Origin: a virus | Taxonomy: Duplodnaviria; Caudoviricetes | Direction: 5' to 3' (one strand) | IMG/VR virus record: IMGVR_UViG_3300032335_001269 | Span: 1-64,000 of that record | Length of the DNA: 64,000 bases | Shown here: one piece after another, positions 32,111 through 56,875 of the stretch | How positions within the stretch are numbered: position 1 is the first letter of the stretch | Layout: every line of letters starts with the position of its first letter | The notes under the pieces: generated by a model | What the model was told of the DNA's origin: nothing | The model's input: the letters and a program-made list of their open reading frames with translations, nothing else | Database searches by the model: none | Translations under genes and position numbers: made by a program

Positions 32111-35100
32111 TTAGAGATCCTTTTTAAGAGATCCATTACTTCTTAATCCATATCCCCTTCTTTGAATAATTGGATATGTGGATAATCCAGAATTATATCC
32201 AAATGTAGTAATTCCAATGCTTGATGTATAATCCGTCACCCCTATTGAAATTGGATTATTGGATCTAGAGAATCCTGATAATCTTCCCCAAGACAATCTA
32301 CCTACAGGATATTCGAGTGTGCCAGTAGTTGCAATGCCAACAATGGATGTGTTGGATGCAATATTGCAAGTTATGATACCTAATGTGGAATTAATTGCGT
32401 GAATTTGATAAATGTTATTCAAGAAAGAAGTGCTAATGGAAATAGTATCAGTATTACTTGTGTTTATAGATGTTACTCCCTGCCCAACAGTAGTTTCGGT
32501 AATATAAACAGGATATCCAACCTGCAAGTCTGGGAAGGAGAATGGATCTCTATCTAAAGTAAACTTAAGTGCTAAAAGAGATCCAATTCCAGATGTGGTT
32601 GCAATTCCTATGATAGAAACGTCATATCCCTCTACATCGGATATATTTGTAATTATTTCATACTCATCTACAGAATTATTAGAGAAAATAAATGCATCAA
32701 AATTAATTGGCAATTGATTTTCATAATTGAAAAGACTACTATCATCAACAAATATTTGATTTGTAGAATTATTGAAATTTCCTATGATATTTGCAGTTGG
32801 ATAAATTTGCGATTCTAAAGAGTCTCTTGATTTATAAACAATTTCGCCATTAAGTATTAGGTCCGTTTTTTGTTTAGTCCAATAGAGAGGTTTGTTATTA
32901 GATTCATCAACTCCCTGACCAGTATATAGATTTGTTTCAATTTTGTCAGAAGCAGAAACATCATTAATGACTCTCGCATCTTGAGTGATTGTATTTTGAA
33001 TATTTGCGTTATTACTAAAGATTTGTACAGTATCTCCAACTTTAACAGTCTCTATCGCATTAATTTGAATCGTATCTTCATCTCTTGTGCCACGATAGAA
33101 GAATATCGCTATATTATCTTCCGGTTTTGGTGCGGCCGAGAATGTAAATGAAGTTCCTCCATTAAATTGGTATGAAACTCCAGGTTCCTGTAAAACACCA
33201 TTAATAAAGATAAGAATAACTGAATCCAAGTCAATTAGTTGAGAATCTGGGTCATTTTCGTCAATCTCAAAACTTAAAATTTCAGAATTATAATAAAGAG
33301 GAAATCTTGTTCTTATTCCATCTTGATAATTTTTTATAGAATCTATATAATCTAACTCACCAAATTGCCAAGCTGCAAAGGAATCTGTAAATACATCAAG
33401 AACAGTTAATTGAAATTCACTAATTGGAGAAGATAGACCTTTTGCGGTCACTAGTCCTACTGGTTTAAATACATCACCTACTCTAAAAGAATAACCATTT
33501 CTGGCAATGTTAAAATTCTTAACTTCAAATAAAGTAGATCCAATTCCAGTAGTAGTTGAACTTGCCCCAACCTCAATATTTAAAAGTAAACCAATTCCAG
33601 TCGCTGTTGTGTTTCCAATTCCAAGTCTAGAAACACCAGTTACGGGTAAGTTTTCATAAGAAGGGGAAGAAACATTCACTGTTGGATTAGTGTATCCTGC
33701 TCCCGGATTGACAATATTGAATGATAAAGTTCCACCTGCTCCAACATTTGCAGTTATAACAGCTCCAGTTCCAATGTGTCCACTTTCGGTAATTGCAACA
33801 GAAACAGGATTTCTATATCCGGACCCAATAATATCAATAGTTCCAATTCCAATTGCAACTATTGACCCACCTGCACCGACAACGGCAGTAACAGAAGCTC
33901 CTACGAGAGGAGCTATTCCTAGACCTCCAGTAGATCCGAGAGATACAATTACACCACCACGAGGAAGTTGATTTTGATTAATGTCATACTGTGATGTAAA
34001 TATATTACTATTGGATGATGTTATTCCCGAAAAAGTGATATTAGTAATTCCAGAGTTTTCTGTTATCAAATAGTTATTTGATGAGTTGTTAAATGTTGTT
34101 GGAGATTGGAAAATATTATTAATGAATACGATTCCATTTCCTCCAGAAGTTCCCAATCCAACAGTGTTTATTCCTTGAGAGGTTAATATAAAAGTTTGCC
34201 CAATTCCAGTAAATTGATTTGAAATATCATCATAAACTTGATTAGATGTATAATCTTCCCTTAAGAAAACTCTTCCATTAAAAGAAGCCCTTTCTCTTAA
34301 CAAGTTAGATTCGCTAGGTCCAACTAAATCGAGAGAGTTTCCTCTAGGAGCTTCTGTAAAGAAAATTTTATTTTCAGAAATATTGTAAGATCCCCTATAA
34401 ACTCTAGCGATAGAACTATCGGTATGCAGTCCGGCAGTAGATCCAACAAGTCCACGAGTAACTTCTACAAGAGAAATACTTCCAGCAAATGTAATAGGAC
34501 CACTGTTAGTTGTACCTAGTCCTACATTCTCAATACGCATATACTCGTCATCAATTTTTATTATATCCGTTGGAGTAATAGAACTAATGCCACTCAAAGC
34601 AAAAATTGTAGATGCTGTGCCAATTTGTCCTCCATTTCCAGACAATGTATGAGTTATATTGGAATATGCAAGAGGACTTTGTACAATTTCATTAATTGAA
34701 ATTATTGATTTTTCATTCTTTTTATACATTTCTAATTGATGAGCATTTCCCAAACCAAAGGATGTAAATGTTACGCCAATTCCTTGAGTAGCGTATTCCT
34801 TTCTTGTTGAAATTCTAAATGTACTATTACTATCTTTTATTGCATATACCACCGATGGTAGTATTGTTGTAACTACGCCAACATAATTTGCTGTAGCACC
34901 AATTCCCATCGCAGAAGTTCCAATTCCAATAAAAGTCGATTTTGGAGTATAAATTAACTGTTCTCCTGTGTTAAAGAAATGATTTGCAATTGTAAACACA
35001 CCTGTCGCTGGATTTAAAACATCACTATCTGATGGATTAAAAGTTTTCATAAAAATTGGCACACCTTCATATTTTGCTTCAAAATCATATTTGTTTATAT

Positions 35101-38100
35101 TTGGAGAATTTGTACCATAATACTTGGCAACTTCAACTTCCTGCCTGACAGGTGAGTAAGTTAAGGCGGGTGGGATGTTAACAACATCCAAATCTTTATA
35201 GAAATTTTCACTAAAAGAAAGTATTTCTAAGTTGCCAGAAATCGAAGGATCTGCATAGAATTTAATTATGAAATTATTACCAGAAATTTCTGCACCAAAT
35301 GTTCCTATTCCGGATGTGCTTCCAACTGATAAGAAAGGATACTGAATTGAATATGAATCACTTCCATCATTAATTGCCATTATCTGATGTAATGCACTTG
35401 TCTGCCCAAGACCAACCTTAATTGTTGATTTTGATGATGTAAATAAAGATTTGTTTAGGACTAAAATACTTGTAGATCCTGAAGAAATATTGTTAAATTG
35501 GGATTGTAAAGTTACTGTCCTCTCACTTCCATCAGATTGTCCGGGAAGTTTAAATCTATAAGTACCTACACCAACTGCAGTTGTGCCAAAACCAACATTT
35601 TTAGTTCTGACTGTCATACTTTCTGCCGAAGTATTTGTATAATTTAATGATAAAACACCACTAGAGATGGATGCTCCAAAGGAACCAATAAACCTAGAAC
35701 TGGTTTCGGTCAAATTGTCATCAAAATAATATTCGCTGATATAAGTATTACTACCATCGTGTGTTAAATATATCTCAACATAGTTCATATCAGAACTATC
35801 ATTGTTTAAAATATGAATATTGGAATAAATTGCCGAATACTTAGAAGAATCTAAACTAAAGATAGATGTAGTTATTCCACTAGAGACAATTTTGTTTGCT
35901 GCTACCAAATCTATAAATCCAATAGATTGTGTAGTTCCAATGCCAGATTTTGTGGTAAACGTATCTTGTAGAATTTTAATATCAAAGTCCGAATTATTAG
36001 TGTCTTCTGGACTAAATTTAAGATAAAAATTTAATGCTGCATCTACGTATCCTTCAATATCTGCTATAGTATTTTGATTATCTAAAGATGTTAAATATGC
36101 TTTTTGTAAAGTAAATATATTTACATCATCATTAATTGTTATAATTTCATTAAACTGAATTTCATTGGTAAATATGTTACGAGTTTGAATTAAAAATCTA
36201 TTATAATTGTTTCCTGAATTAATCCGGAATATATTAGAAACCTCAGATAATTCATCATTTTCGCTTGAAAATTGTGAACTTATATCATCTATGTTTAAAA
36301 CTCTATTCGTTTTGCATAAAATATAATCAGCAAGACGTATATTCCTAAACTTAATAAATTTTGACTTGCTATCCAAAATATCAACATCAACAACCAAATC
36401 TAAATTATTAATCCTATCAACTCTAGTATCACTTTCAAACACATTTAAGAGAGTTAGCGGAGACTCAGTAGTTCCTATCCCCGACTGAACACTTTGCATA
36501 ATCTGTGTGTCCGCAAAGTTTTTCATTCCGCTAATATGTAACAAATTATTAACAGGAGTTACAATTTCTTCCCAAGTTTTAGTACTCTTTACTGAATATG
36601 ATAAGTTTTGATAATAATCATTGTCTGGTGTTACTTGGAAATTTTCATTGAGTTTTCCAGTTTCAAATCTCCAACCAAATTCCTGTAAGTTGAAATAATC
36701 TACATTGTAAACTCCATCGACTACCTTTACCGAATCGATAGTTGCTTCATTGGAAGATTCCAATCCTCTTATTTTTTCACCAGCAGAAAGATTATAATTT
36801 CCAGATACTCTTACAAAATTTTCATCACAACTAACCACAACTAAGTCTCTAACTATAAATCCATTTCCATCATCTGATGACAATCCTTCTCCAATTTGGA
36901 AAGGTGAAAATTTCTGTATAACTTCAAATTCTGGATAATTTTTAAAGTTAATTACTGTAGCATAAGATTCCTGAATTGTCTTTGCTATTCCAGTATTTGT
37001 AGATAAACCAGAAAGATTAAATTCCAATTTAGCTGGATTGATATTTTGGAAATTAGTTACTGTAAAGAACTGATATCCATAATCTGTTGAATTGAATCCA
37101 TCGCCAAGAGAACCACTCTTTTCAATTCCCTCAACAAAAATTCTATCTCCAATTGAAAATGGTGCTATTGTAAATCCAGATAATGGTGTTGTTAAGAAAC
37201 AGGTAACTACACCGGAAGAAGATTGAATTGTGTCAATCGAAATTCCATTGGAGTTGTTTATTGCTCTGATTGTAACTGGTTTAATTGGGAGACCTTTGGG
37301 TTCTACTTCAATTTTTACTTCACCGATTGAAGATCCAGTTAAACTTGCCTTTAAAAATCCAGATTCAATTAATTCACCAGTGTCAGAGTCTACTAATATT
37401 AAATCTGGTGCTGAAGCATAATTTTGCCCACCATTTAAGATAGTTATAGAATCAATACTATTTGAAGAAGAAATATAAACTGATTGTGGAATATTTGCAG
37501 TTGGTCTTAAAGTTTTATCTGAAGCGTATTCAAATCCCTCATTTACGATTCTACTTTGCGTAATCTTACCAATAGTTTCAGATGATGGAATAATAAATGC
37601 ACCTTTACCATTTGTAGAATTGGATCCTGTAAAACGAGGAAGTGATTTGTAACCATATCCACCAGAAATAAGATTTACCTTATTAATTCCTCCAGTTGCT
37701 GTAGTGGAACTAGTGGTATATTCTAATACATCACAATCATTTTTCTGATAAGAAAGTTTTTCTGGAATATTCTTTAAAGAAACCGTAAAAGTAGTAGTTG
37801 CTATTCCAATTACATCATATCTCCCTTTATATTCACTATCTACAAATATTATTTCAGAATAATTGACAACATCAGAATCTGCAGTACCAATATAACCAGA
37901 TTTCTCTAGATTATAATAGAGTTTTTCTGGTACAGAATCAGTGTAGTCTAGAGTTAATGAAGCATTGGTAGACACACCAACAGTACCAACTCCAGAAATA
38001 GAAAGGGATGTGGTAGTTGCAACAGAAACAAATTCTTTACTAAAATCTTTATCATAGTAAATTTTTAAGTTATAACCAGATAGTGAAGAATCTGATAAAT

Positions 38101-41100
38101 TGAACGCAAGATTATTATTTTTAATTACTTCAATTTGAGGATTAATGAGTGAAATAACTTGATTTGATCCTCCAGTGAATCCAACTGAAACGGAATTTAT
38201 TGGATACTCCGTTACATCTTTATATGTTTGACCTAGTTTAAATTTACTATCATCAACTTTATGAACAAAATATTCTCCATCATCCAATGGAATGAATTGA
38301 CTTGTATTACTTAAATATAAAATTTTATCTCCACTTTTCAATCCATGATTTGTAATTTGGAAATAACCTTCAAGTGACCCCGAACCATAATATCCACCCA
38401 ATCCAAGTCCTGGAGTAGTGGCAAATCTATAAATCATCAGTCCATCACCCAACGGTGCCACACTTCCACCACCATCTATATCATAGCAAGAACTAAATGG
38501 TGATATACCAATTGTGCTACCAATTCCTACACCACCAGTTACAGAACTAATATAAGATCTAATTGAAGTTGCGGTTGTTCTTGTTGCACCTTCTGGGAAA
38601 GTAATGCCTGTTGTTAAGGCAGCACCAGGAAAAGAACCAAACATCTCTCTTATAATAATAAAACCATCAACAGAACTAACTATACCATCACCATCTACAT
38701 CAAATTTATCATAATTATCCCACACATAATCATAAATTTGCTGAGCATTTCTTGTTGCTGAGGGTGTTATTACTTTATCAATCCATGCTATTCCGACTTG
38801 ATAGTCTATTGTTGGTTGTCTAGTTGCAGAATCATAATAAATTGAAGTTGGAAACACACTTTCTGATCCAAATCCAATTGGATTGATCATTAATTTTCCA
38901 TATTTTGTATTATATAATACTTTTATAGAAGATGAGGTTCCTATTCCTACAGATAAATCTGGATTCACATTTAATGATACTTTATCGCCAATTGATAGAT
39001 TGTGGGATGTTGAAACAGAAACTACTGTGTTTATTTTGTTAATATCTGCAGTGACTTGAGTAAAGTTTGATTCAATTGAGTACCTATAATCATCATTTGC
39101 AGAAGACCAACTGGTATTTCTAAAGAATAATCCATTAGTATTTGTCGTTAATCCAACATTAGTTACTATACCAATATAATCTTTAGACTTATTAATTGCA
39201 TATAATGTTTCAGAGTTACCACTTAAAATATTGAACGAAGCACTCGTAGAAGTATTTGAAACTGTAATAGGATCTCCACCAGTTGGTTTTCTGAAGATTA
39301 CTTGCTGACCAGTAACAAATGGGTGATTTGGTACAAAAATACTTTGAGTTGGAATGAAAGTATTATATGTTGTTATTCCAATGTTATAGTTTACATTTAT
39401 ACCTACTCCAACCGTTGTACCAATTCCTACCGATTTTGTGGGGTTATAATATACTTTATCATTTACTTTTGACTCAAAGTAATCTGTAGAATTATTTACA
39501 GTAAATGAATCTGGGAGAAAGTAAACTGGAGTTGTTTGAGTATGTATTCCACCACTTGCATTTCTACTTACTCTAACCACACCAAAATTATTGTAGATAT
39601 TAAGAACTGAGAAAATTTCATTATCAATTTTAAAACTACTTCCAACTGCAACATTTTGTGGTATTGATGTTAAATAAACATCAGTTACTATTCCTGTAGA
39701 AGCATACGCAGGAATTTGCTTATCTAATATTGTGGAATATGTTGTTAATCCAATTTGATATGATCCATTGATATTTAAAACTTGATTAGATAATCCAGAG
39801 ATATTGATATTGTCTCTATTTAAAAATTCATGGTATGGTGCAATATAAACTCTAACAGTATTTCCATTAACCCAAGTAATAAGAGAATCATTATATGATT
39901 GAATAGTAGTATTAATATCATTTATTTGTTTACCTTTTATTTCTGATACTTTTGCAAATATTCCACTACCTTCAGTATCACTTTCGTCAAATATTATTTG
40001 ATCATTTACTTTATAGTCAGATCCAGAATTTACAACTTCTAAAGTAGAGACACTACCAGAAGATACTGATTCTACTAATGTCTTTTGCTGTATTATCTCA
40101 TTTGATTCTGTAATGAAATCATTATCAGCATACTCATCATTTACTTTATATGGTAAAGTATTTCTAAGTAATTTAGAATTATTGAAATCAAATGACTGAT
40201 CTAACTCAATGTTTTCTTCCAAATATGGAGACCTATATTCATTTCCAATAAAATATGGGAATTTTCCTACAAGTTGCCCATCAATATTAGTTTCTGTGGT
40301 GGCAAAGTATGCATATACTCCATCAGGAAAATCTTTAGTTTTTCCAAATCTACCATTATATTGATCTAAATTTCCACTGCCAGTATATTCATAATCCTCA
40401 ACAAAATATCCATATGGGAACTGAGTAGTTGATGGTCTATTGTCCAAATCAACTAAAGAATATCCTGGTTGTAATTTTTTTATAGAAGAATTAGTATCAT
40501 TGGGATCTTCATATCCAAAAGATCCATAAATCGGATTTCCATCATAAGCCCACCCAATAATATCCGAATGTTGTCCAGATAAATCTCCATTATCATTGAA
40601 ATTCGTTTTTGTGTTTTGAGAATAACCAATGACTGCATATTGCAATCCCTCACCGTAAGTTTCAATTAATACTTCACTTGATGGATTTCTATAAAATTCG
40701 TTTTGAACTCCATATTTGTAAGAATTATTGAGTGTAAGACTTCTAATATTTACTTTCAATACTTCATTTTTACCTACAGGCACAACTTTAATTATAGTGT
40801 CTGTTGATGTATATCCTGTTCCGGGATTAACAACTACTACATCGGTTATTTTATTATCTAAAATGACAGGTTTAACAATAGCACCTATTCCACTTCCACT
40901 AACAACCAAATCTGGAGTTGAATAGTATTCTACTCCACCATATAATACTTGCACATCAGTTATTCTTCCATTTGTAATCGTTGGTCTGAGTTGAGCATTT
41001 TTTCCATTCTTAATAATGACTTGAGGTCTTTTATGAACGTTTAATGTCGTTGTACCATAATTAGATCCTTTATCATAAACATAAACTTCTGAAATTTTTC

Positions 41101-44100
41101 CTCTAATAATAGGAGTTGCATTAATAATTCCTCTAACTTGTGTACTTCCAAGACCAACTGACGAATATTCTACAGATAGAGAAATATTTGGATATTTGAA
41201 TATTTGATATCCACTTCCCGTTGAATTAAACTTTACGTAGTTTTTTCTTTGATAATTTGAAGTATCCTTACCACCTATTCCAGCACTGCAAAGTCTGAAC
41301 GTATCTGAATCTAATTTTAAAATTACATAGTTATTGGATGTTGATAATCCAGTAATTGGTGCAGTTTGATAGTCATATGAAATAATTTCTCCGTCACTAA
41401 ATCCGTGATTTTTAAAAGTAATTGTATTGTTGTAAGTAGATACTCCTACTTGAGATACTCTTAAAAGTCTATTTGCATATCCGGACCCATTGCTAATTAC
41501 TGAAATTCCTGTGAGTTTATTTTTTGGTTCGGTTTTAAACTTTTGAATGCCAGAATTACCTGTAGTAGTAAATCCTACAGTATTAATACCAATAGTATAG
41601 TCGGAAAGTGATTGGTATAATTCAATTGTTCTATCGTTTACAACTTTGGTGTAATAAGTTGCACCACTTACCAAAGTTTTTGATTGATCTAAATTAGATC
41701 CGTTAAAAGTACCAACTCCAATAGCAGAATTAAAATTTCTATCATATACAATAGGTTGACCATTAACTAAACTATGCGTTGATGCAAATGAAATTCTATC
41801 GTTATTAACATCCAATCCACCACCATTGGAAATTGACCTTGCATCAAATTCTAATTCTCGCACATATTTTTCAATAATTGGCTCAAAACTCGCCCCAGAT
41901 CCATTTCCTCCAGTAAGAGAGATTGAAACAATAACATCGATATCAAAATCTTGGGGGTCAACAAATATTTTTTTGACAGATCCAATTATTACTGGTTGTA
42001 TTAGAGCAGATCCATAAGATAACTCTAAAAGTGGAGGATTAATTACATCAAATTCACTACCACCGTTTAAAACATCAACATTTTCGATTGGTCCATAATA
42101 GATTTTATCATTTGTTTTGAAGTTGTATATTTCAACTCCATTTTTTAGCATTCCAATTGCACCAGGAAGAGTCTGATGTCTCCCATTGCTTCCTAGATCT
42201 GGATTTAATTTAAATTTTTTAAGTATTTTTTGTCCTGAAATTTTATTTGATCTTTGGGAATATAATGTAAAGTTATGAGTTCCGGTTGGTGTTGATGATT
42301 GACCTGCACCGAAATAAACAAAATCTTCGCTTCCAACAACAGGACCACTCAAATATAACTTAACTTGTCTTTTGTTACTTAATACTTCAACGAAATAATT
42401 ACCTTCCTCCAATCCATTAATAGGATTGCTATCGCTAGTTGAGTAAAAAACTCTATCTCCAGTTATAAAAGAAATTTCAGTATTAAAATCAATTATTGAA
42501 TATGATTCATTGCTACTGTCATATCCGGATAATTCAAAAACATCATATCCAAAAACATCAACCCGAATTTCATATGATGGCAATGAATTAGATGCAACAT
42601 AAAAATAATCTGGTCTTTCGATATAAACATTCTGCACATCAGATATCAATTTATTATTTCCAAAATCAATTGGAATTATTGAAGATGTTGCTTTATTAAT
42701 AATTCTTCTAACATCATATTCATCTGACGAATTTAATAAAGAAGTATTTACATTAATTGAAATTACATTTCCTGAAATTGAGTTGATATTTACATTTTCA
42801 AATCCAGTAACTACAATTTCCGTATTTCTTTTTAAAATTTCAACGATATCGCCAGTCTTCAGGCTTGATGAATCTATACTAGACTTTGTTATTATTGTAT
42901 TTCCAACAAAAGAATCAATTTGATATCGTGAACTTGTATTATAAATCCAAGAATTTGCAAATATTTCTTTTGTCGTGTCTCCCTGCTCGATTACTTCTCC
43001 AAGATTTTTTGGGTAAATGATATCATTACTTAATAATTCATAGTTTTCAGTTTCAATATCAAGGTCAGATAATACGCCAGTAATTCTAAATTCTACTTTT
43101 TTTGTAGTATCTCCATCTTCATATCCATAATATGTGTCATTTGAAATTAAAAATGATTTTTTAGGTATTGCTATTGAATTTGTAGATTTAACATAACAAC
43201 CTAAAAATTGATTAACACTTTTGTCAGAATAAAAAATTTCTTGGGAACCATAAAAAATACTTCCCGAATTTAAAAATCCAATAGTAGAGTCAACACTAAT
43301 AACGGTTTCACCATCTTCTAATGGAGTTACGGTTACTTCTTCAATAACTTTGGTATTTGGTGTAATGGTAAATGTCCCAGTAACATTGGGATAAGTATCA
43401 TCATATCCAACAAAAAAATTAAGTTTATAGTAAGTTATACCATTTCTAGTAATAGTTTCTACTTCGGATACTGCAGCACTAGTGAATTCATCTGTTGTTT
43501 TTTTAATTGTCTGACCAACTAGTTTTGTTGGATTGCCGGAAATATTACTTATAATCGCAACATCTCTTCTAATATAACCAGCATCTGATGGTTTAATTAA
43601 AAATTTCTCAAGATTAATTACACTTGGTGTTTCCCCATACAATACATTAAAAAGTATTCTAAAAGATTCAGGAGTTCCTTTAGACTCATATAAAGTTCTT
43701 GCTTCTTTTATGAAATTTCCTGCATCAAGATTTTCAGTAAAATCTAAACCTTCTAGTCCAGGTGTTAAACTAAACTTTATTTTCTTATAAAATTCTTGTA
43801 AAAAGAGAGAACTTAAATTTTGTACTGAAGATCCTGATTCGTGAGAAGTAGCAGAAGATTGACTAAAAACTAATTCTCCATATTGCAAATCTTTATGATA
43901 ATTAGTAACACCACTAAATCCTCTTATACACCCAGTGAAAGTATTTCCGGATATAGCAGTATATGTAATAATCTCATTATCAATTTTGAAGAGACCATAC
44001 TTTGCAGGAAAACCTCTAGTACTTGATACTGAAATTATGGTAGAAGTTGTTGTAATATCGTCTTCAAGAGTTGTATAACCAATAACTACTTCTGGAGTAA

Positions 44101-44290
44101 GATTATCAAGTTCAATATATTGATCTAAATTTTCAGCGATATCTACAGGACCACCCTGATACTCTTGGGAGATATAGTATTGCTTTAAAAATTCAGCAGC
44201 CTTTGGACTTTCATCTAAAATAAATTCTGGAAGCTGACTATCGATTATTTGTTGTACTTTTACTCTAGATTCAAAACCCGTTTGTATCAT
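32111..44290 (-). CDS. gp7: Baseplate wedge initiator gp7 (4059 aa)
   Basis: QLPEF, FLKQYY, YESKGT..SFRILF, IIGWAYDGNPIYG, DNDYYQNLSYS; between gp6 and gp8. Confidence 0.88.
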   Translation of the reverse strand: MIQTGFESRVKVQQIIDSQLPEFILDESPKAAEFLKQYYISQEYQGGPVDIAENLDQYIELDNLTPEVVIGYTTLEDDITTTSTIISVSSTRGFPAKYGLFKIDNEIITYTAISGNTFTGCIRGFSGVTNYHKDLQYGELVFSQSSATSHESGSSVQNLSSLFLQEFYKKIKFSLTPGLEGLDFTENLDAGNFIKEARTLYESKGTPESFRILFNVLYGETPSVINLEKFLIKPSDAGYIRRDVAIISNISGNPTKLVGQTIKKTTDEFTSAAVSEVETITRNGITYYKLNFFVGYDDTYPNVTGTFTITPNTKVIEEVTVTPLEDGETVISVDSTIGFLNSGSIFYGSQEIFYSDKSVNQFLGCYVKSTNSIAIPKKSFLISNDTYYGYEDGDTTKKVEFRITGVLSDLDIETENYELLSNDIIYPKNLGEVIEQGDTTKEIFANSWIYNTSSRYQIDSFVGNTIITKSSIDSSSLKTGDIVEILKRNTEIVVTGFENVNINSISGNVISINVNTSLLNSSDEYDVRRIINKATSSIIPIDFGNNKLISDVQNVYIERPDYFYVASNSLPSYEIRVDVFGYDVFELSGYDSSNESYSIIDFNTEISFITGDRVFYSTSDSNPINGLEEGNYFVEVLSNKRQVKLYLSGPVVGSEDFVYFGAGQSSTPTGTHNFTLYSQRSNKISGQKILKKFKLNPDLGSNGRHQTLPGAIGMLKNGVEIYNFKTNDKIYYGPIENVDVLNGGSEFDVINPPLLELSYGSALIQPVIIGSVKKIFVDPQDFDIDVIVSISLTGGNGSGASFEPIIEKYVRELEFDARSISNGGGLDVNNDRISFASTHSLVNGQPIVYDRNFNSAIGVGTFNGSNLDQSKTLVSGATYYTKVVNDRTIELYQSLSDYTIGINTVGFTTTGNSGIQKFKTEPKNKLTGISVISNGSGYANRLLRVSQVGVSTYNNTITFKNHGFSDGEIISYDYQTAPITGLSTSNNYVILKLDSDTFRLCSAGIGGKDTSNYQRKNYVKFNSTGSGYQIFKYPNISLSVEYSSVGLGSTQVRGIINATPIIRGKISEVYVYDKGSNYGTTTLNVHKRPQVIIKNGKNAQLRPTITNGRITDVQVLYGGVEYYSTPDLVVSGSGIGAIVKPVILDNKITDVVVVNPGTGYTSTDTIIKVVPVGKNEVLKVNIRSLTLNNSYKYGVQNEFYRNPSSEVLIETYGEGLQYAVIGYSQNTKTNFNDNGDLSGQHSDIIGWAYDGNPIYGSFGYEDPNDTNSSIKKLQPGYSLVDLDNRPSTTQFPYGYFVEDYEYTGSGNLDQYNGRFGKTKDFPDGVYAYFATTETNIDGQLVGKFPYFIGNEYRSPYLEENIELDQSFDFNNSKLLRNTLPYKVNDEYADNDFITESNEIIQQKTLVESVSSGSVSTLEVVNSGSDYKVNDQIIFDESDTEGSGIFAKVSEIKGKQINDINTTIQSYNDSLITWVNGNTVRVYIAPYHEFLNRDNINISGLSNQVLNINGSYQIGLTTYSTILDKQIPAYASTGIVTDVYLTSIPQNVAVGSSFKIDNEIFSVLNIYNNFGVVRVSRNASGGIHTQTTPVYFLPDSFTVNNSTDYFESKVNDKVYYNPTKSVGIGTTVGVGINVNYNIGITTYNTFIPTQSIFVPNHPFVTGQQVIFRKPTGGDPITVSNTSTSASFNILSGNSETLYAINKSKDYIGIVTNVGLTTNTNGLFFRNTSWSSANDDYRYSIESNFTQVTADINKINTVVSVSTSHNLSIGDKVSLNVNPDLSVGIGTSSSIKVLYNTKYGKLMINPIGFGSESVFPTSIYYDSATRQPTIDYQVGIAWIDKVITPSATRNAQQIYDYVWDNYDKFDVDGDGIVSSVDGFIIIREMFGSFPGAALTTGITFPEGATRTTATSIRSYISSVTGGVGIGSTIGISPFSSCYDIDGGGSVAPLGDGLMIYRFATTPGLGLGGYYGSGSLEGYFQITNHGLKSGDKILYLSNTSQFIPLDDGEYFVHKVDDSKFKLGQTYKDVTEYPINSVSVGFTGGSNQVISLINPQIEVIKNNNLAFNLSDSSLSGYNLKIYYDKDFSKEFVSVATTTSLSISGVGTVGVSTNASLTLDYTDSVPEKLYYNLEKSGYIGTADSDVVNYSEIIFVDSEYKGRYDVIGIATTTFTVSLKNIPEKLSYQKNDCDVLEYTTSSTTATGGINKVNLISGGYGYKSLPRFTGSNSTNGKGAFIIPSSETIGKITQSRIVNEGFEYASDKTLRPTANIPQSVYISSSNSIDSITILNGGQNYASAPDLILVDSDTGELIESGFLKASLTGSSIGEVKIEVEPKGLPIKPVTIRAINNSNGISIDTIQSSSGVVTCFLTTPLSGFTIAPFSIGDRIFVEGIEKSGSLGDGFNSTDYGYQFFTVTNFQNINPAKLEFNLSGLSTNTGIAKTIQESYATVINFKNYPEFEVIQKFSPFQIGEGLSSDDGNGFIVRDLVVVSCDENFVRVSGNYNLSAGEKIRGLESSNEATIDSVKVVDGVYNVDYFNLQEFGWRFETGKLNENFQVTPDNDYYQNLSYSVKSTKTWEEIVTPVNNLLHISGMKNFADTQIMQSVQSGIGTTESPLTLLNVFESDTRVDRINNLDLVVDVDILDSKSKFIKFRNIRLADYILCKTNRVLNIDDISSQFSSENDELSEVSNIFRINSGNNYNRFLIQTRNIFTNEIQFNEIITINDDVNIFTLQKAYLTSLDNQNTIADIEGYVDAALNFYLKFSPEDTNNSDFDIKILQDTFTTKSGIGTTQSIGFIDLVAANKIVSSGITTSIFSLDSSKYSAIYSNIHILNNDSSDMNYVEIYLTHDGSNTYISEYYFDDNLTETSSRFIGSFGASISSGVLSLNYTNTSAESMTVRTKNVGFGTTAVGVGTYRFKLPGQSDGSERTVTLQSQFNNISSGSTSILVLNKSLFTSSKSTIKVGLGQTSALHQIMAINDGSDSYSIQYPFLSVGSTSGIGTFGAEISGNNFIIKFYADPSISGNLEILSFSENFYKDLDVVNIPPALTYSPVRQEVEVAKYYGTNSPNINKYDFEAKYEGVPIFMKTFNPSDSDVLNPATGVFTIANHFFNTGEQLIYTPKSTFIGIGTSAMGIGATANYVGVVTTILPSVVYAIKDSNSTFRISTRKEYATQGIGVTFTSFGLGNAHQLEMYKKNEKSIISINEIVQSPLAYSNITHTLSGNGGQIGTASTIFALSGISSITPTDIIKIDDEYMRIENVGLGTTNSGPITFAGSISLVEVTRGLVGSTAGLHTDSSIARVYRGSYNISENKIFFTEAPRGNSLDLVGPSESNLLRERASFNGRVFLREDYTSNQVYDDISNQFTGIGQTFILTSQGINTVGLGTSGGNGIVFINNIFQSPTTFNNSSNNYLITENSGITNITFSGITSSNSNIFTSQYDINQNQLPRGGVIVSLGSTGGLGIAPLVGASVTAVVGAGGSIVAIGIGTIDIIGSGYRNPVSVAITESGHIGTGAVITANVGAGGTLSFNIVNPGAGYTNPTVNVSSPSYENLPVTGVSRLGIGNTTATGIGLLLNIEVGASSTTTGIGSTLFEVKNFNIARNGYSFRVGDVFKPVGLVTAKGLSSPISEFQLTVLDVFTDSFAAWQFGELDYIDSIKNYQDGIRTRFPLYYNSEILSFEIDENDPDSQLIDLDSVILIFINGVLQEPGVSYQFNGGTSFTFSAAPKPEDNIAIFFYRGTRDEDTIQINAIETVKVGDTVQIFSNNANIQNTITQDARVINDVSASDKIETNLYTGQGVDESNNKPLYWTKQKTDLILNGEIVYKSRDSLESQIYPTANIIGNFNNSTNQIFVDDSSLFNYENQLPINFDAFIFSNNSVDEYEIITNISDVEGYDVSIIGIATTSGIGSLLALKFTLDRDPFSFPDLQVGYPVYITETTVGQGVTSINTSNTDTISISTSFLNNIYQIHAINSTLGIITCNIASNTSIVGIATTGTLEYPVGRLSWGRLSGFSRSNNPISIGVTDYTSSIGITTFGYNSGLSTYPIIQRRGYGLRSNGSLKKDL

Positions 44291-49140: not shown

Positions 49141-49361
49141 TTCTGTAAAACCTTTTTTCGTTTTTATATAGGGAAAAAAATTTTTATAATGAGTGTAATA
49201 ATTAGATCGCTTTCGTAACACTTTGTAGGTTAGGGGGACCCATCGATTTTATATACGGGGGGGGTTATCTTATAACACGCCGCCGGCGGGGGCGGGCACA
49301 ATACCCGGACCCCTGCCAAACACGAACGAATGAGACTGCCCCTCACGAACAATGCAAGGGG

Positions 49362-49652
49362 TCAGGCACCCCTACGCTCCAGAGCAGCAGCGCGGCGATC
49401 GTTGCGGTACTGATCACGGGCACGGATCATCACTGCCTCAAGGTCAGCAACCATCACACTGCCCAACCCTGTGACGCGGGTGATGGTCAGACCCTTACCC
49501 GAACCAACGGCATGGGACGAACCACCGGCAGGCAAATCAGAATCACGAACGGAACCAATGGCAGCACCCCGCCCGTGCTGAGAGTTACGGCTGAGGGTCT
49601 CACCCTTACGGGGACCGCGACGGGGCAGGCGGGTGACGGTATAGATGGTCAT
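49362..49652 (-). CDS. Early hypothetical protein (start MTIYTV)
   Basis: ATG follows repeat promoter 49668-49688. Confidence 0.6.
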   Translation of the reverse strand: MTIYTVTRLPRRGPRKGETLSRNSQHGRGAAIGSVRDSDLPAGGSSHAVGSGKGLTITRVTGLGSVMVADLEAVMIRARDQYRNDRRAAALERRGA

Positions 49653-49701
49653 CGGTTCAGGGGGTGTCGGTTGAGAGTATTGTAGCAGATCGGCGGAGGG
49701 G

Positions 49702-49914
49702 TCACCCCCATTGAGTGCTGCGCCACCCGCTGATGGGGCAGGGGGCAACGTCACCAGCAAGGGTCTCAGAGTATTGGGCAGCAATCGCGGTAGCGGGCAC
49801 TCCCCAATGAATGTAGGCGGAAGGGCGGGACCCGTTCTTCAGTTGGTCAGCACGGGAGACCCACTTGACCTGACGGGTAGCAAGGTCAGAGCAGGCAGCA
49901 AGGGGGAAACGCAT
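49702..49914 (-). CDS. Early hypothetical protein
   Basis: Lies between two family-A repeats. Confidence 0.6.
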   Translation of the reverse strand: MRFPLAACSDLATRQVKWVSRADQLKNGSRPSAYIHWGVPATAIAAQYSETLAGDVAPCPISGWRSTQWG

Positions 49915-49952
49915 CAGGTCGGTGTCGGTTGACTTGAGAGTATTGTAGCAGG

Positions 49953-50159
49953 TCAGCGGTCGTTCAGGTATTGCTCAAACCCCCGTGCCATTCCCTGCAG
50001 AAAAGCGGCGGCGATGCCCTGCCAGAACCCAGGGTCCTTGACGCAAGCGGTCAGACCATCCATCCAGTCTTGGGCGGTAGCGTTGGCGATTGCTTCCCGC
50101 TCTGCAGGGGTCAGGTCATCCAGGAACTGCTGCAGGTCATCGGTTGCGTTGCGGGTCAT
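49953..50159 (-). CDS. Early hypothetical protein
   Basis: Between family-A repeats; stop codon inside the repeat. Confidence 0.65.
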   Translation of the reverse strand: MTRNATDDLQQFLDDLTPAEREAIANATAQDWMDGLTACVKDPGFWQGIAAAFLQGMARGFEQYLNDR

Positions 50160-50193
50160 CAGAGTGCCTTGCGGTTGAAAGAATTATAGCAGG

Positions 50194-50400
50194 TCAGCGG
50201 GCAGCAGGCAGCAGGCAGCGGCTGACCTCACCGGGTGCCCTCAACACTTGACCGCCCTGCTGCTGGCAACGGGATTCGATGCGGACGTTAGCGCGGTTGA
50301 GCAGCAGGAACAGACCTGCCGCTGCCAGAGTGATGCCTGCAAAGAACAGAGCATAGACCGCAGCATCTTTCAGGCGCTCTTGCAGTTCGAAGGTGGTCAT
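50194..50400 (-). CDS. Early membrane protein (start MTTFEL)
   Basis: Hydrophobic AAVYALFFAGITLAAAGLFLLL, then C-x-x-x-GG...C. Confidence 0.65.
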   Translation of the reverse strand: MTTFELQERLKDAAVYALFFAGITLAAAGLFLLLNRANVRIESRCQQQGGQVLRAPGEVSRCLLPAAR

Positions 50401-50467
50401 CGGGGTTCCTTGCGGTTGAGAGTATTGTAGCAGGTCGGGGGCAGGGGTCAACCTGCCCCGTAGGGGG

Positions 50468-50647
50468 TCAGCGGATCACCTTGACCACTTCGCCCTTGTG
50501 GCGAATCACGATGGAGGTGAAGGAGGGGTGGAACCCCTTGGCGCTGCGAACGGCACCTGCCAGGGAGGTGCAGTGGGTCATGCAGGATGCTGCATCGGGG
50601 GTGGAACCAGCAACAACGGTGAAGTCGCGGGTCTTGGTGGTTGCCAT
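50468..50647 (-). CDS. Early hypothetical protein (start MATTKT)
   Basis: Follows TATACT -10 at 50677-50672. Confidence 0.6.
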   Translation of the reverse strand: MATTKTRDFTVVAGSTPDAASCMTHCTSLAGAVRSAKGFHPSFTSIVIRHKGEVVKVIR

Positions 50648-50718
50648 GGGGTGGGGGTGTGAACTGGAATCAGTATAGGGGCAAAAGGGAGGGGGTGTGC
50701 CCCTCCGTTGTGCCACTA

Positions 50719-50850
50719 TCAGAATTGGATCTCCTGCAGGGTCGGGGCGTCAGCAGCGTCACCCTCAGCGGTCAGGGTCTCCAGAATCTGCAGCAGTTCG
50801 GCGCCAGTGGCAGCACGGTTCAGCAGGGCAACGGCAAGGTCAGCGGTCAT
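50719..50850 (-). CDS. Early hypothetical protein, 43 aa (not in track)
   Basis: MTADLAVALLNRAATGAELLQILETLTAEGDAADAPTLQEIQF. Confidence 0.65.
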   Translation of the reverse strand: MTADLAVALLNRAATGAELLQILETLTAEGDAADAPTLQEIQF

Positions 50851-50916
50851 GGTTGAAATAGGGTTGAGGTTTGCTGGGCGTCTTTCAGGGCGCACCCGCT
50901 CCCGTATTGTATCAGG

Positions 50917-51078
50917 TCAGCGGGCGAACTGTGCCAGACTGCTGGGAGCGACGTGAGCAGGGGACCCGCAGGACCTGTAGAAGTCTACCATACGCTCTGC
51001 CTCCTGCAGGGTGGGGAACCACTGGGAGCGCCACTCGCAGGCGTTGTAGGGGGTCTGGTAACGGACTTCGATTCGCAT
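50917..51078 (-). CDS. Early hypothetical protein, 53 aa (not in track)
   Basis: MRIEVRYQTPYNACEWRSQWFPTLQEAERMVDFYRSCGSPAHVAPSSLAQFAR; flanked by family-A repeats. Confidence 0.7.
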   Translation of the reverse strand: MRIEVRYQTPYNACEWRSQWFPTLQEAERMVDFYRSCGSPAHVAPSSLAQFAR

Positions 51079-51142
51079 GGGTTGGTTGCGGTTGAGAGTA
51101 TTGTAGCAGGTCAGGGGGGTCGGGTGTGACCCCCCAGCGGGT

Positions 51143-51403
51143 TTAGAAGTCGAACACGTCGCCGTTGATTTCAGCGCGGTTGACTTTAGGGTCGTCCCAT
51201 TTCACACCGTCAGGAGTTTCTTTGGTGCCAAATTCATAAAATGCTTCCAGCAGTTCTTCATAGCAGCAGACATCATTCTCCTGAATGAAGTTATGAATGC
51301 TCTCATCATTCTCAATCCAGAGCACAACATTCCAGGTCTCATAATTGGTCCAACCGTTGTAGGTTTGGTCGGTGAGGCAGGTCTGGTAGGTAGTGGCAGG
51401 CAT
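51143..51403 (-). CDS. Conserved early phage protein (YNGWTNYETW family)
   Basis: TYNGWTNYETWNVVLWIEND motif; own promoter. Confidence 0.75.
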   Translation of the reverse strand: MPATTYQTCLTDQTYNGWTNYETWNVVLWIENDESIHNFIQENDVCCYEELLEAFYEFGTKETPDGVKWDDPKVNRAEINGDVFDF

Positions 51404-51476
51404 TGGTTTGTCTGTGGTTGACTTGTTAATTGTAAGGGGTCAGGCGGGGGGTTGGTGCCCCCCTTGTGCCAGTTCG

Positions 51477-51677
51477 TCAGGCGTCCGAGACTGCCAACTC
51501 ACCGATGCGGGATTCCAGGCAGACCTCCCGCACCTCCATCCGGGCATAATCGTATCCCTGATCCAATTCCAGTTCCTGCCGATAGAGGTCAGCAGCAGTG
51601 CGGCAATCGAACAGGCGGAGGGAATCAAAGGACTCGCCTTCATAATCCCAACCACCGATGACAGCGTAGACTTGCAT
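51477..51677 (-). CDS. Small acidic early protein
   Basis: Own promoter; stop inside family-B palindrome. Confidence 0.65.
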   Translation of the reverse strand: MQVYAVIGGWDYEGESFDSLRLFDCRTAADLYRQELELDQGYDYARMEVREVCLESRIGELAVSDA

Positions 51678-51757
51678 GGGTTGCTCCGTTTGGTATGAAT
51701 CAATTATAGGGGGTCAGGGCAGGGTCTGGGGTTGTCAGGGTGCCAGTTCGGAGACTG

Positions 51758-55365: not shown

Positions 55366-55447
55366 CGAATTTCTCAGGGACGAATGTAAATTATCAGGAA
55401 TTCATCCCCAGCGCAAGGGGGTTTGTGCCACTTCGAGAACTGTCACA

Positions 55448-55600
55448 CTAGACGAAGATATCGACCTCTTTGATGCTAACATCGACATCTTCGTCACCTT
55501 CGAGTTCTAATATTTGTCTCCAATTAATATCCTCAAGATCTAGATCATCATAACACTCTACATCTAGAGTAACACGTACTAGGCGTTTGTGTGCTATCAT
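55448..55600 (-). CDS. Small acidic protein, 50 aa (not in track)
   Basis: MIAHKRLVRVTLDVECYDDLDLEDINWRQILELEGDEDVDVSIKEVDIFV. Confidence 0.6.
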   Translation of the reverse strand: MIAHKRLVRVTLDVECYDDLDLEDINWRQILELEGDEDVDVSIKEVDIFV

Positions 55601-55606
55601 GATATA

Positions 55607-55747
55607 TTATGCGTAATGCCTGTATGCTAGGTCCTGATAATCATGCGTGTCTCGTGCATAATCATCATCTAGATCTAGTGTATAATGCTCATCTAGATCC
55701 GCGTAATCGTTCGTGTATGTGTAGTCGAAATCGTAATCGTCGTACAT
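55607..55747 (-). CDS. Asp/Tyr-rich protein, 46 aa (not in track)
   Basis: MYDDYDFDYTYTNDYADLDEHYTLDLDDDYARDTHDYQDLAYRHYA; TTGCAA-18-TATAAT upstream. Confidence 0.55.
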   Translation of the reverse strand: MYDDYDFDYTYTNDYADLDEHYTLDLDDDYARDTHDYQDLAYRHYA

Positions 55748-55749
55748 AG

Positions 55750-55988
55750 CTCGTCGAGATCGTGTGAGTGACTTGTGTATTATAGCATAGAGCTCGACGA
55801 GATTGCAATAGGTGTGTGCAGGTCTCGTCGAGATTCATATGGTAGTATATATGAATCTAGATGCTTCTAGATGGGTCTCGACTAGATTGTATGAGAGTCT
55901 CGTGACATAATGCCTCGTCGAGATTCTATCATACTCTGATAAGAATGTCAAGTCTCGTCTAGATTTTATGTGCGGGTCTCGTCTAGAT
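55750..55988. repeat. Iteron-like repeats CTCG(T/A)C(G/T)AGAT
   Basis: Copies at 55750, 55793, 55824, 55877, 55914, 55954, 55978, plus a degenerate one at 55899. Confidence 0.85.
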
Positions 55989-56024
55989 TTTATGAGGGTC
56001 TGGGGATTTTTATGGGGGCGGGGG

Positions 56025-56053
56025 TTGACAAACTGCAAGTCTTATGGTACGCT
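56025..56053 (+). promoter_or_regulatory. Rightward sigma70-type promoter
   Basis: TTGACA-17-TACGCT, with TG upstream of the -10. Confidence 0.55.
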
Positions 56054-56123
56054 CGCTAAACTCACAAGACCTGGACACATTTATAAGCACTTATAAGGTA
56101 TTAGAGAGCATACATTTATAAAG

Positions 56124-56163
56124 TTTTCCACATAATTAAATACTTTTCCACAGGTTTTCCACA
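56124..56163 (+). promoter_or_regulatory. Three cyanobacterial-type DnaA boxes TTTTCCACA
   Basis: 56124-56132, 56144-56152, 56155-56163, same orientation, followed by an AT-rich tract. Confidence 0.7.
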
Positions 56164-56212
56164 ACTAAACAAAATACACTTATATATTTTTTAATACATT
56201 TTTTTAATTAAT

Positions 56213-56401
56213 TTAACCTTTTTTATCCTTTCTTTCTTGTGCTGCTGTCTGTGCTAAATGAATATTTGTATGAAGACGTTGTAGATTTGCATAACGATTA
56301 TGCTGACGTGTTATAACAGAGTTTGCTTTAATTCTTGCAGCATTAACATTTGACTGTTGTGCTGTAGGAATCTGTTCCATGAATTGAAAGAACGTCTTCA
56401 T
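56213..56401 (-). CDS. Basic protein with capsid-targeting-like N-terminus
   Basis: MKTFFQFMEQ; CTAAATA at 56425-56431. Confidence 0.6.
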   Translation of the reverse strand: MKTFFQFMEQIPTAQQSNVNAARIKANSVITRQHNRYANLQRLHTNIHLAQTAAQERKDKKG

Positions 56402-56452
56402 TGCTATACTTAAGACTGTAATGATATTTAGAATCTGGTTGATTATAATACA

Positions 56453-56875
56453 TCAATTCACAAAATCCCACATTCCACCATTCCATTGCCACTTACGATC
56501 TTTCCATTCATAACTATCACCTACATTTGGATTTATAGGAAACCTTGGACCACTATCTTCCTGGTCTGAACTCTGCACCTTATTAATAACCTCATCGAAC
56601 TTTCCATTTAACCAATCATTATCTGACACTGACCACTTATTAATTGGACACGAATCTAATGCAAAGTTAGTCTTATGATCTAAAAAACATCCACAATGCT
56701 TACACCTTACTTGATTGGCATCATAATACTCACACTGTTTACATATATCAAGTCTTTCCTGTTTAACTTCAGGCGATACAAACAATGCATTAGATGAGAA
56801 CGCTTGCTTTACAACTTCAAATGTAAACTTTGCAAGATTCTTTCCTTGTTCTGGTAATGATGGATAGTCAGTCAT
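56453..56875 (-). CDS. Cys-rich DUF6171-type protein
   Basis: RLDICKQC...CKHCGCF...CPINKW; C-terminal FP..P..GD.Y...W.WNG..W module. Confidence 0.7.
   Translation of the reverse strand: MTDYPSLPEQGKNLAKFTFEVVKQAFSSNALFVSPEVKQERLDICKQCEYYDANQVRCKHCGCFLDHKTNFALDSCPINKWSVSDNDWLNGKFDEVINKVQSSDQEDSGPRFPINPNVGDSYEWKDRKWQWNGGMWDFVN

Follow-up and report, generated by a model that had tools for sequence, protein, structure and literature searches.

Why should a T4-like cyanophage carry, in a gap between its genes, three perfect copies of the cyanobacterial DnaA box? To our knowledge, T4 replication does not use DnaA. The DNA analysed here, called the window, is the first 64 kb of IMG/VR record IMGVR_UViG_3300032335_001269 (G000 below), which has 101,525 bp and is an estimated 41% complete. 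T4-type baseplate genes are present in the record, and its gp6 homologue shares 91.9% identity with that of Synechococcus phage S-SRM01 (Kyanoviridae, Serangoonvirus; 240.8 kb, freshwater) and about 33–56% with those of marine cyanomyoviruses. The stretch is contained wholly or almost wholly in runs X1–X5, which are labelled freshwater metagenome or plain metagenome and may be the source of this DNA. The virus is a freshwater T4-like cyanophage of the S-SRM01/S-SKS1-like T4 type. Three features of the window may be recorded in passing. A 4059-aa ORF (32111–44290, minus strand) adjoins the gp6 and gp25 baseplate genes, and the S-SRM01 annotation at the homologous place reads baseplate wedge initiator. 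An island at 49300–51700 with small ORFs reaches 57% G+C, against 37% in the record; it has no match among the 12 of 158 matching records listed in a distant blastn search of named phages, and these 12 match the window only from about 51.76 kb rightwards. A tRNA search of the window found none.

The boxes lie at 56124–56132, 56144–56152 and 56155–56163 on the plus strand. All three match TTTTCCACA exactly and are co-oriented, with start-to-start spacings of 20 and 11 bp, the last two forming a tandem pair with a 2-bp gap; their positions, common orientation and spacing are as the preliminary description gave them. That description had also taken TTTTCCACA for the cyanobacterial DnaA-box consensus, and the motif is in print as such, beside the general DnaA consensus TTWTNCACA, i.e. 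TT(A/T)TNCACA (PMC4674748, in the part of the paper available). The 64-kb window contains TTTTCCACA only in these three copies, and the genome-wide count that had been proposed gives four in the 101,525-bp record, three of them in the trio and the fourth at 66303 on the minus strand. This number is ordinary, since 17 of 100 dinucleotide shuffles of the window reach at least three copies (mean 1.43). The clustering, on the other hand, is far beyond chance: given four sites in the record, three would lie on the same strand and within 40 bp with a probability of about 4.7e-7.

It should be noted that neither the motif nor its pairing is peculiar to this virus or its hosts. Paired TGTGGAAAA in GTDB comes from many phyla among the matches listed (19 cyanobacterial loci were looked at), and TTTTCCACA is therefore not exclusive to cyanobacteria; by its distribution, the motif is best described as host-compatible rather than host-exclusive. 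The pattern TGTGGAWAA-N11-13-TGTGGAWAA is found in at least 121 stretches of IMG/VR, and none of the 80 looked at is the module described below, from which no more follows than that pairs of DnaA boxes are frequent in viral contigs. Many unrelated viral contigs in IMG/VR (L100–L179) carry 3–7 co-oriented DnaA boxes at 11-, 21-, 22- or 32-bp steps.

Upstream of the boxes, a rightward sigma-70-type promoter occupies 56025–56053 on the plus strand, with the -35 element TTGACA at 56025–56030, a 17-nt spacer and the -10 element TACGCT at 56048–56053. An extended -10 (TGG, 56045–56047) and the TAnnnT positions are both present. A consensus scanner did not list this promoter because TACGCT and TATAAT agree in no more than 3 of 6 letters. 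Nevertheless, the pattern TTGACA-N14-TGn-TAnnnT has its sole plus-strand match in the whole record at 56025–56053, and exactly one such promoter stands on the antisense strand of G000 and exactly one on that of S-SKS1. The site falls in a 465-bp gap (55748–56212) that has a 62-aa ORF on one side and a cluster of tiny ORFs on the other. Since the family-matching ORFs nearby are all on the minus strand, the promoter opposes the local genes; both its sequence and this opposition bear out what had been said of it at first.

Transcription from this promoter is predicted to yield a rightward non-coding RNA. Its start, placed by inference at a conserved AAACTCACAAG, opens the stretch 56058–56123 (plus strand), in which there is no ORF and which holds short iteron-like repeats, namely ACATTTATAA at 56077 and 56112 and CTTATAA units (repeat family D15). 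The boxes come next, and 3′ of them lies an AT-rich tract (56164–56225), a candidate DNA unwinding element, which starts some 105 nt beyond the predicted 5′ end of the transcript, a distance that in relatives depends on the repeats. The tract had been called almost pure A/T at 56165–56222. Its purity does not hold, the composition there being 88% A+T, but the tract itself does: by nearest-neighbour energy, only one other distinct stretch of the 101.5-kb record is less stable, whether 40 bp or 60 bp are considered. The stop codon of the 62-aa ORF overlaps the tract, whose outer part (AAGGTTAAATTAATTAAAAAA, minus-strand reading) aligns with the closest relatives.

Marine relatives have a leftward late-promoter box, TATAAATA, inside the tract, and part of the AT-richness may therefore serve transcription; the window's own tract lacks TATAAATA. 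Over the whole records of G000 and S-SKS1, this box occurs on one strand only, with 11 reverse copies in the former, 21 in the latter and no forward copy in either, which fits T4-type late transcription in this lineage. In 17 loci, including L019, L036, L047–L049, L062, L066 and L071, the tract is abutted by a rightward GIY-YIG homing-endonuclease ORF of about 337 aa, and in one metagenome contig (run X9), 1086 additional letters stand between window positions 56183 and 56205, inside the tract.

These elements recur in relatives. Through one flanking gene, which encodes a 140-aa DUF6171 protein, 75 related IMG/VR loci were gathered, many of them near-copies of each other. In many of the 75, TTTTCCACA stands on the same relative strand shortly after the DUF6171 gene. 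With an nhmmer model of the promoter block, the module is recovered from 64 of 77 sequences (the 75 loci, S-SKS1 and the window); the other 13 are without it within the fetched DNA, several of them having little downstream sequence. The same anchor gives one match each in the 101.5-kb record and in the complete 208-kb genome of S-SKS1, even at E up to 10, and there is one box trio each in the complete genomes G001 and S-SKS1. Read in the direction of the genes, the order is constant: AT tract, site array, repeats, antisense promoter, promoter-like leftward elements bearing TCTCGWCGAGA near-palindromes, and the same two tiny genes. The repeat zone contains a variable number of CTTATAAA/CTTCTAAA-type units, and the module recurs even where the identity of the flanking protein has dropped to about 50%. 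In the isolate S-SKS1 (Llyrvirus, host WH7803), it sits at 151.1–151.6 kb of the record in a 490-bp unannotated gap, with boxes TTTTCCACA, TTATCCACA and TTATCCACA at 21-bp steps and five tandem repeat copies of 22-bp period (starts 151322–151410). The preliminary description had named lack of conservation in relatives among the findings that would speak against it; promoter, boxes and AT tract instead recur as a single-copy module.

Within the module, conservation is concentrated on particular letters. Across the 64 promoters, TGn and TAnnnT are kept in 64 of 64 and the 17-nt spacer in 63; the -35 element is TTGACA in 59 and TTGACT in the remaining 5, this part of the conservation arising partly by construction because the nhmmer seeds were chosen to contain the -35 complement. 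The 64 promoters comprise 31 distinct strings, and the inner letters of the -10 element vary, with TACGCT, TATAAT, TAGCCT, TATGCT, TAACGT and others among the relatives. The promoter shows a footprint: functionally critical positions are kept, and other letters vary. The boxes behave similarly where they occur. DnaA-type modules number 26 of the 64, each with 3–4 perfect co-oriented boxes (TTTTCCACA or TTATCCACA), and reduce to 13 distinct arrays with 40 boxes (25 TGTGGAAAA and 15 TGTGGATAA), all perfect and none inverted. The 9-mers are invariant across the 13 arrays while spacers and flanks differ, and the two variants are both of the letters that the DnaA consensus permits at that position. 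Only spacings of 11, 20, 21, 22 and 31 bp occur, near a whole number of helical turns, and they are combined in five arrangements. In 13 of 13 distinct arrays, the AT tract is on the 3′ side of the boxes, and the 70 bp beyond them are 77–86% A+T.

The boxes are, however, not universal. The slot that they occupy contains DnaA boxes in 26 of the 64 modules, a TTGAGAAT dyad in 25, GGAGTGTCTTT repeats in 4 (L035, L037, L040, L046) and something else in 9. In the dyad type (L005, L009, L013, L018, L022, L045 and others), ATTCTCAAT-N-ATTGAGAAT and further TTGAGAAT copies stand where DnaA boxes would be. S-SRM01, the closest isolate, which was checked apart from the 77, likewise has the module with a TTGAGAAT dyad, at about 85.31–85.64 kb (locus L344, 9350–9395). 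Its complete genome holds 7 scattered TTWTCCACA and no DnaA-box cluster anywhere, and five dyad-type contigs of 22–62 kb, which are fragments, also hold no such cluster. An alignment of the window with five close relatives makes the exchange visible: the flanks are shared, namely an AT tract beginning AAGGTTAAATT and a block GTTTAGCGAGCGTAyCATAAGAC...TTTGTCAA, and the centre is unrelated.

A quick maximum-likelihood tree was made from the flanking protein (63 rows; S-SKS1, which has no homologue in range, was left out). On it, the DnaA label changes at least 7 times, at least 4 of these changes being forced by well-supported branches, compared with a mean of about 19 for shuffled labels. The window belongs to a clade of 18 rows with 98% support. 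The other 17 are all of the TTGAGAAT dyad type, and the window's trio thus appears as a replacement inside a dyad-type lineage. Because 25 modules and S-SRM01 hold the dyad instead, the boxes are an exchangeable cassette and not part of the conserved core. As judged from these genomes, DnaA would be optional for this virus family, and the swap at a fixed place suggests that whatever protein is recruited acts locally and in cis. Clustering of ORFs of at least 45 aa from -2.5 to +3 kb around the 64 modules revealed no convincing cassette-specific ORF family.

The neighbourhood of the module is that of an early-gene region. On its promoter side, a leftward early-promoter zone (55750–56010, minus strand) contains seven near-palindromes (T)CTCGWCGAGA(C), each directly after a -10-like hexamer and together spanning window positions 55750–55989 (minus-strand reading). 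Two of the promoter-like elements in this zone are TTGACA-17-TAGAAT (55951 to 55923) and TTGCAA-18-TATAAT (55808 to 55779), both on the minus strand. The near-palindrome occurs nowhere else in the 101.5-kb record and in S-SKS1 is confined to that phage's own module; the seven copies look like an operator set on tandem early promoters. The leftward tiny-ORF cluster that follows opens with a gene for a 46-aa acidic protein rich in Tyr and Asp (55607–55747, minus strand; no Pfam or PHROG match), whose homologues stand directly after the module in 61 loci of all cassette types. The second gene encodes a 50-aa protein (55448–55600, minus strand; phrog_12516), and both genes are kept in about 60 loci irrespective of cassette type. 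On the AT-tract side, the 62-aa ORF that ends at the tract (56213–56401, minus strand) is missing from the closest relatives, in which the 140-aa DUF6171 gene (56453–56875 in the window, minus strand) abuts the module directly.

Taken together, the best explanation of the trio is, in our opinion, that it represents the DnaA version of an exchangeable protein-recruiting cassette in a single-copy, origin-like module heading an early-gene cluster. The module is the best candidate for the replication start of this virus. More specifically, it may be an origin of the T4 oriF kind, built of a promoter and an unwinding element, in which host DnaA helps to open the AT tract; we hold this tentatively, at somewhat less than an even chance. 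In such an origin, host sigma-70 RNA polymerase would fire from the extended -10 promoter at 56025–56053, against the genes, and the non-coding RNA would cross the short repeats and the boxes into the AT-rich tract. Host DnaA on the three phased boxes, whose polarity is into the tract, would help to open the tract or hold it open. The RNA could then remain annealed as an R-loop and prime leading-strand synthesis, and, as at T4 oriF and oriG, the displaced strand would receive the gp41 helicase from the phage gp59 loader. In relatives with the TTGAGAAT dyad, a different protein would be recruited for the opening step. The wider proposal that T4-like cyanophages share one modular origin, in which a fixed antisense promoter and unwinding element are joined by an exchangeable cassette that picks the opener, host DnaA in some lineages, this one among them, and a dyad-binding protein in others, is possible and rather doubtful.

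The likeness to T4 is close in some respects. At T4 oriF and oriG, a promoter reads into an AT-rich unwinding element downstream of it, where an R-loop transcript primes synthesis, and oriE consists of an early promoter and iterons of unknown role (PMC3016281, in the part available); the comparison with T4 origins drawn in the preliminary description agrees with this source as far as promoter, unwinding element and R-loop are concerned. As at oriF and oriG, the promoter of the module reads into an AT-rich, non-coding element of about 100–250 bp, and the gp59 loader exists in the family: T4_Gp59_N (PF08993) scores above cut-off in 3 of 4 records (G001, S-SKS1 and S-SRM01) and is missed in G000, the 41% fragment. 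There are also differences. The module promoter is of the host sigma-70 extended -10 type and not MotA-dependent; repeats and a DnaA-box array intervene between promoter and AT tract, which, unlike that of oriF, does not follow the promoter directly; and there is one module per genome, whereas T4 has several origins. For oriE, the available part of PMC3016281 mentions no DnaA boxes, and the repeats of the module vary in number and sequence. Finally, unlike in T4 with its R-loop origins, phage RNase H (PF09293) was found in 0 of 4 records. This lack of T4 RNase H agrees with a review (PMC2984593), and a host enzyme could take its place in R-loop processing.

Several observations weigh against an origin. 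The boxes are dispensable in the family, as the 25 dyad modules and S-SRM01 demonstrate, and the other 17 rows of the window's own clade are of the dyad type. RNA over the AT tract would, as read from the sequence, be U-rich, and U-rich RNA gives weak RNA-DNA hybrids. To these may be added the distance between the predicted transcript start and the tract, the lack of T4 RNase H in the 4 records, the absence of the GC spacer and GAT trios of host oriC, and the late-promoter box in the tract of marine relatives. GC skew does not help in either direction. Cumulative skew in S-SKS1 falls monotonically with no turn at 151 kb, and there is no turn at 56 kb in the window; skew is uninformative here because nearly all genes are on one strand. 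A single theta origin has been predicted for Syn9 (review PMC2984593). The literature on cyanophage DnaA boxes, S-SKS1 and S-SRM01, including PMC8557907, contains no description of the module in the portions available, which do not extend to the account of the Syn9 origin in Weigele et al. 2007.

Comparison with the host's own origin is instructive as well. Cyanobacterial oriC rows read box, box, GC spacer, GAT trios (PMC8287927, supplement). The window resembles them in its host-type consensus boxes and in its tandem pair, which is 2 bp apart (at most 3 bp in the oriC system); the relatives of the window differ from the tandem-pair form, their box gaps being 12 bp or more. The region to be opened is, as in the rows for S. 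elongatus and Prochlorococcus, on the 3′ side of 5′-TTWTCCACA-3′, and the helical-phase spacing is shared with box arrays in cyanobacterial genomes, where the single spacing per locus was imposed by the search pattern. Unlike oriC, neither the window nor its relatives have a short GC spacer or three or more GAT-type trios within 16 bp, and NAN runs beyond the boxes are, by eye, only as frequent as expected in AT-rich DNA. A further difference from oriC is that the promoter fires through the boxes and that other sites replace them in relatives.

Among the alternatives, one in which the module serves transcription control only survives best, and we regard it as somewhat unlikely. Bound between the upstream operon and the early cluster, DnaA, or the dyad-binding protein in relatives, would serve as a roadblock or switch that keeps transcription begun in upstream genes or at the late promoter out of the early genes, or that limits the antisense RNA; early or late expression would in this way be linked to the host's state. 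The setting favours such a role: the module lies in a divergent promoter region, upstream of about seven tandem leftward promoter-like elements with a private palindromic operator, and swappable operator cassettes are typical of regulatory regions. A terminator scan of 55400–56600 found none, so that the upstream genes and the early cluster have no hairpin terminator between them, and in the marine versions, the consensus late promoter TATAAATA in the AT tract points through the boxes. Control of transcription leaves unexplained, however, why a strong promoter with no ORF, aimed at a very unstable AT tract, should be the most conserved part, and why the polarity of the boxes into the tract is constant; moreover, the window's own tract is among those without TATAAATA.

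A DnaA sink or tether is improbable. The preliminary description had offered, as the other possibility, a datA/DARS-like site, and a role of this kind could take two forms: boxes on many phage copies might titrate host DnaA, as datA does, and block initiation in the host, or they might tie phage DNA to membrane-bound DnaA, in the manner proposed for the injection stop signal of T5. Clustered, high-affinity consensus boxes would suit either form. T5-like phages keep 8 DnaA boxes in a non-coding region other than their origin (bioRxiv 10.1101/866236, in the part available), and the likeness is that host DnaA boxes are retained by a lytic phage within an untranslated region that is conserved and rich in repeats, the injection stop region in T5. 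According to the same portion of that source, the T5 boxes form pairs at a distance of 3 bp, these pairs lie within inverted repeats that belong to the terminal repeat, and a function in the injection stop is proposed for them. This layout is not seen here; the boxes of the module are co-oriented, have no surrounding inverted repeats and lie beside a promoter and an AT tract. A sink fares no better, there being only 3–4 boxes per genome. The closest relatives hold the TTGAGAAT dyad in the box slot, S-SRM01 has no DnaA-box cluster, and the change of label at least 7 times on the tree, with non-DnaA repeats in the same slot in 25 modules and S-SRM01, weakens the claim: a swap with another protein's sites, at one fixed place beside a promoter and an AT tract, is not expected of a titration site. 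Unlike in datA or DARS, the conserved core consists of the flanks.

It is just as hard to credit that a phage protein, and not host DnaA, binds the 9-mers, their likeness to DnaA boxes being coincidence or mimicry. The alternative cassettes do imply other binders within the virus family. All 40 boxes, however, are TTTTCCACA or TTATCCACA and match the DnaA consensus TTWTNCACA (PMC4674748, available part). A search of the phage proteins for the DnaA DNA-binding domain (domain IV, PF08299) gave 0 of 3 records at E up to 1, and no ORF family within 3 kb tracks the cassette type. Related arrangements exist in which DnaA is an assistant. At P1 oriR and in iteron plasmids, DnaA boxes help a replicon-specific initiator, and at ori-lambda, DnaA stimulates transcriptional activation near the origin. 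The module has short repeats; unlike at P1 oriR, no initiator gene was identified beside it, the neighbours being the DUF6171 gene and tiny ORFs with no known family. Least probable is a structured small RNA gene or the leader of a rightward gene, for which the GIY-YIG ORF abutting the tract in some relatives might speak, given that the window, S-SKS1 and S-SRM01 all lack a rightward ORF, that the repeat number varies between relatives, that the fold of the predicted transcript is no better than that of shuffles (z = -0.40) and that Rfam yields no match over the window at gathering thresholds and none over 55500–56500 even at E up to 1.

An origin-like module with an exchangeable opener cassette thus remains, in our opinion, the preferred account of the locus, and its implications reach beyond this virus. 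In the literature covered, the origins of T4-like cyanophages have not been experimentally mapped, and the module provides a precise, single-copy candidate of about 250 bp. Two cultured phages with two cassettes, DnaA boxes in S-SKS1 and the TTGAGAAT dyad in S-SRM01, offer a natural comparison. Should the module prove not to be an origin, it would still be a conserved control region with swappable operator sets heading the early genes. If it is one and host DnaA is used, it would be the first T4-type origin dependent on the host initiator. A lytic T4-type phage would then depend on, or sense, the initiator of its host, and phage DNA synthesis would be tied to the host's cell-cycle or light control; phage replication would be coupled to the licensing state of the host through DnaA-ATP and, through it, to light and energy.
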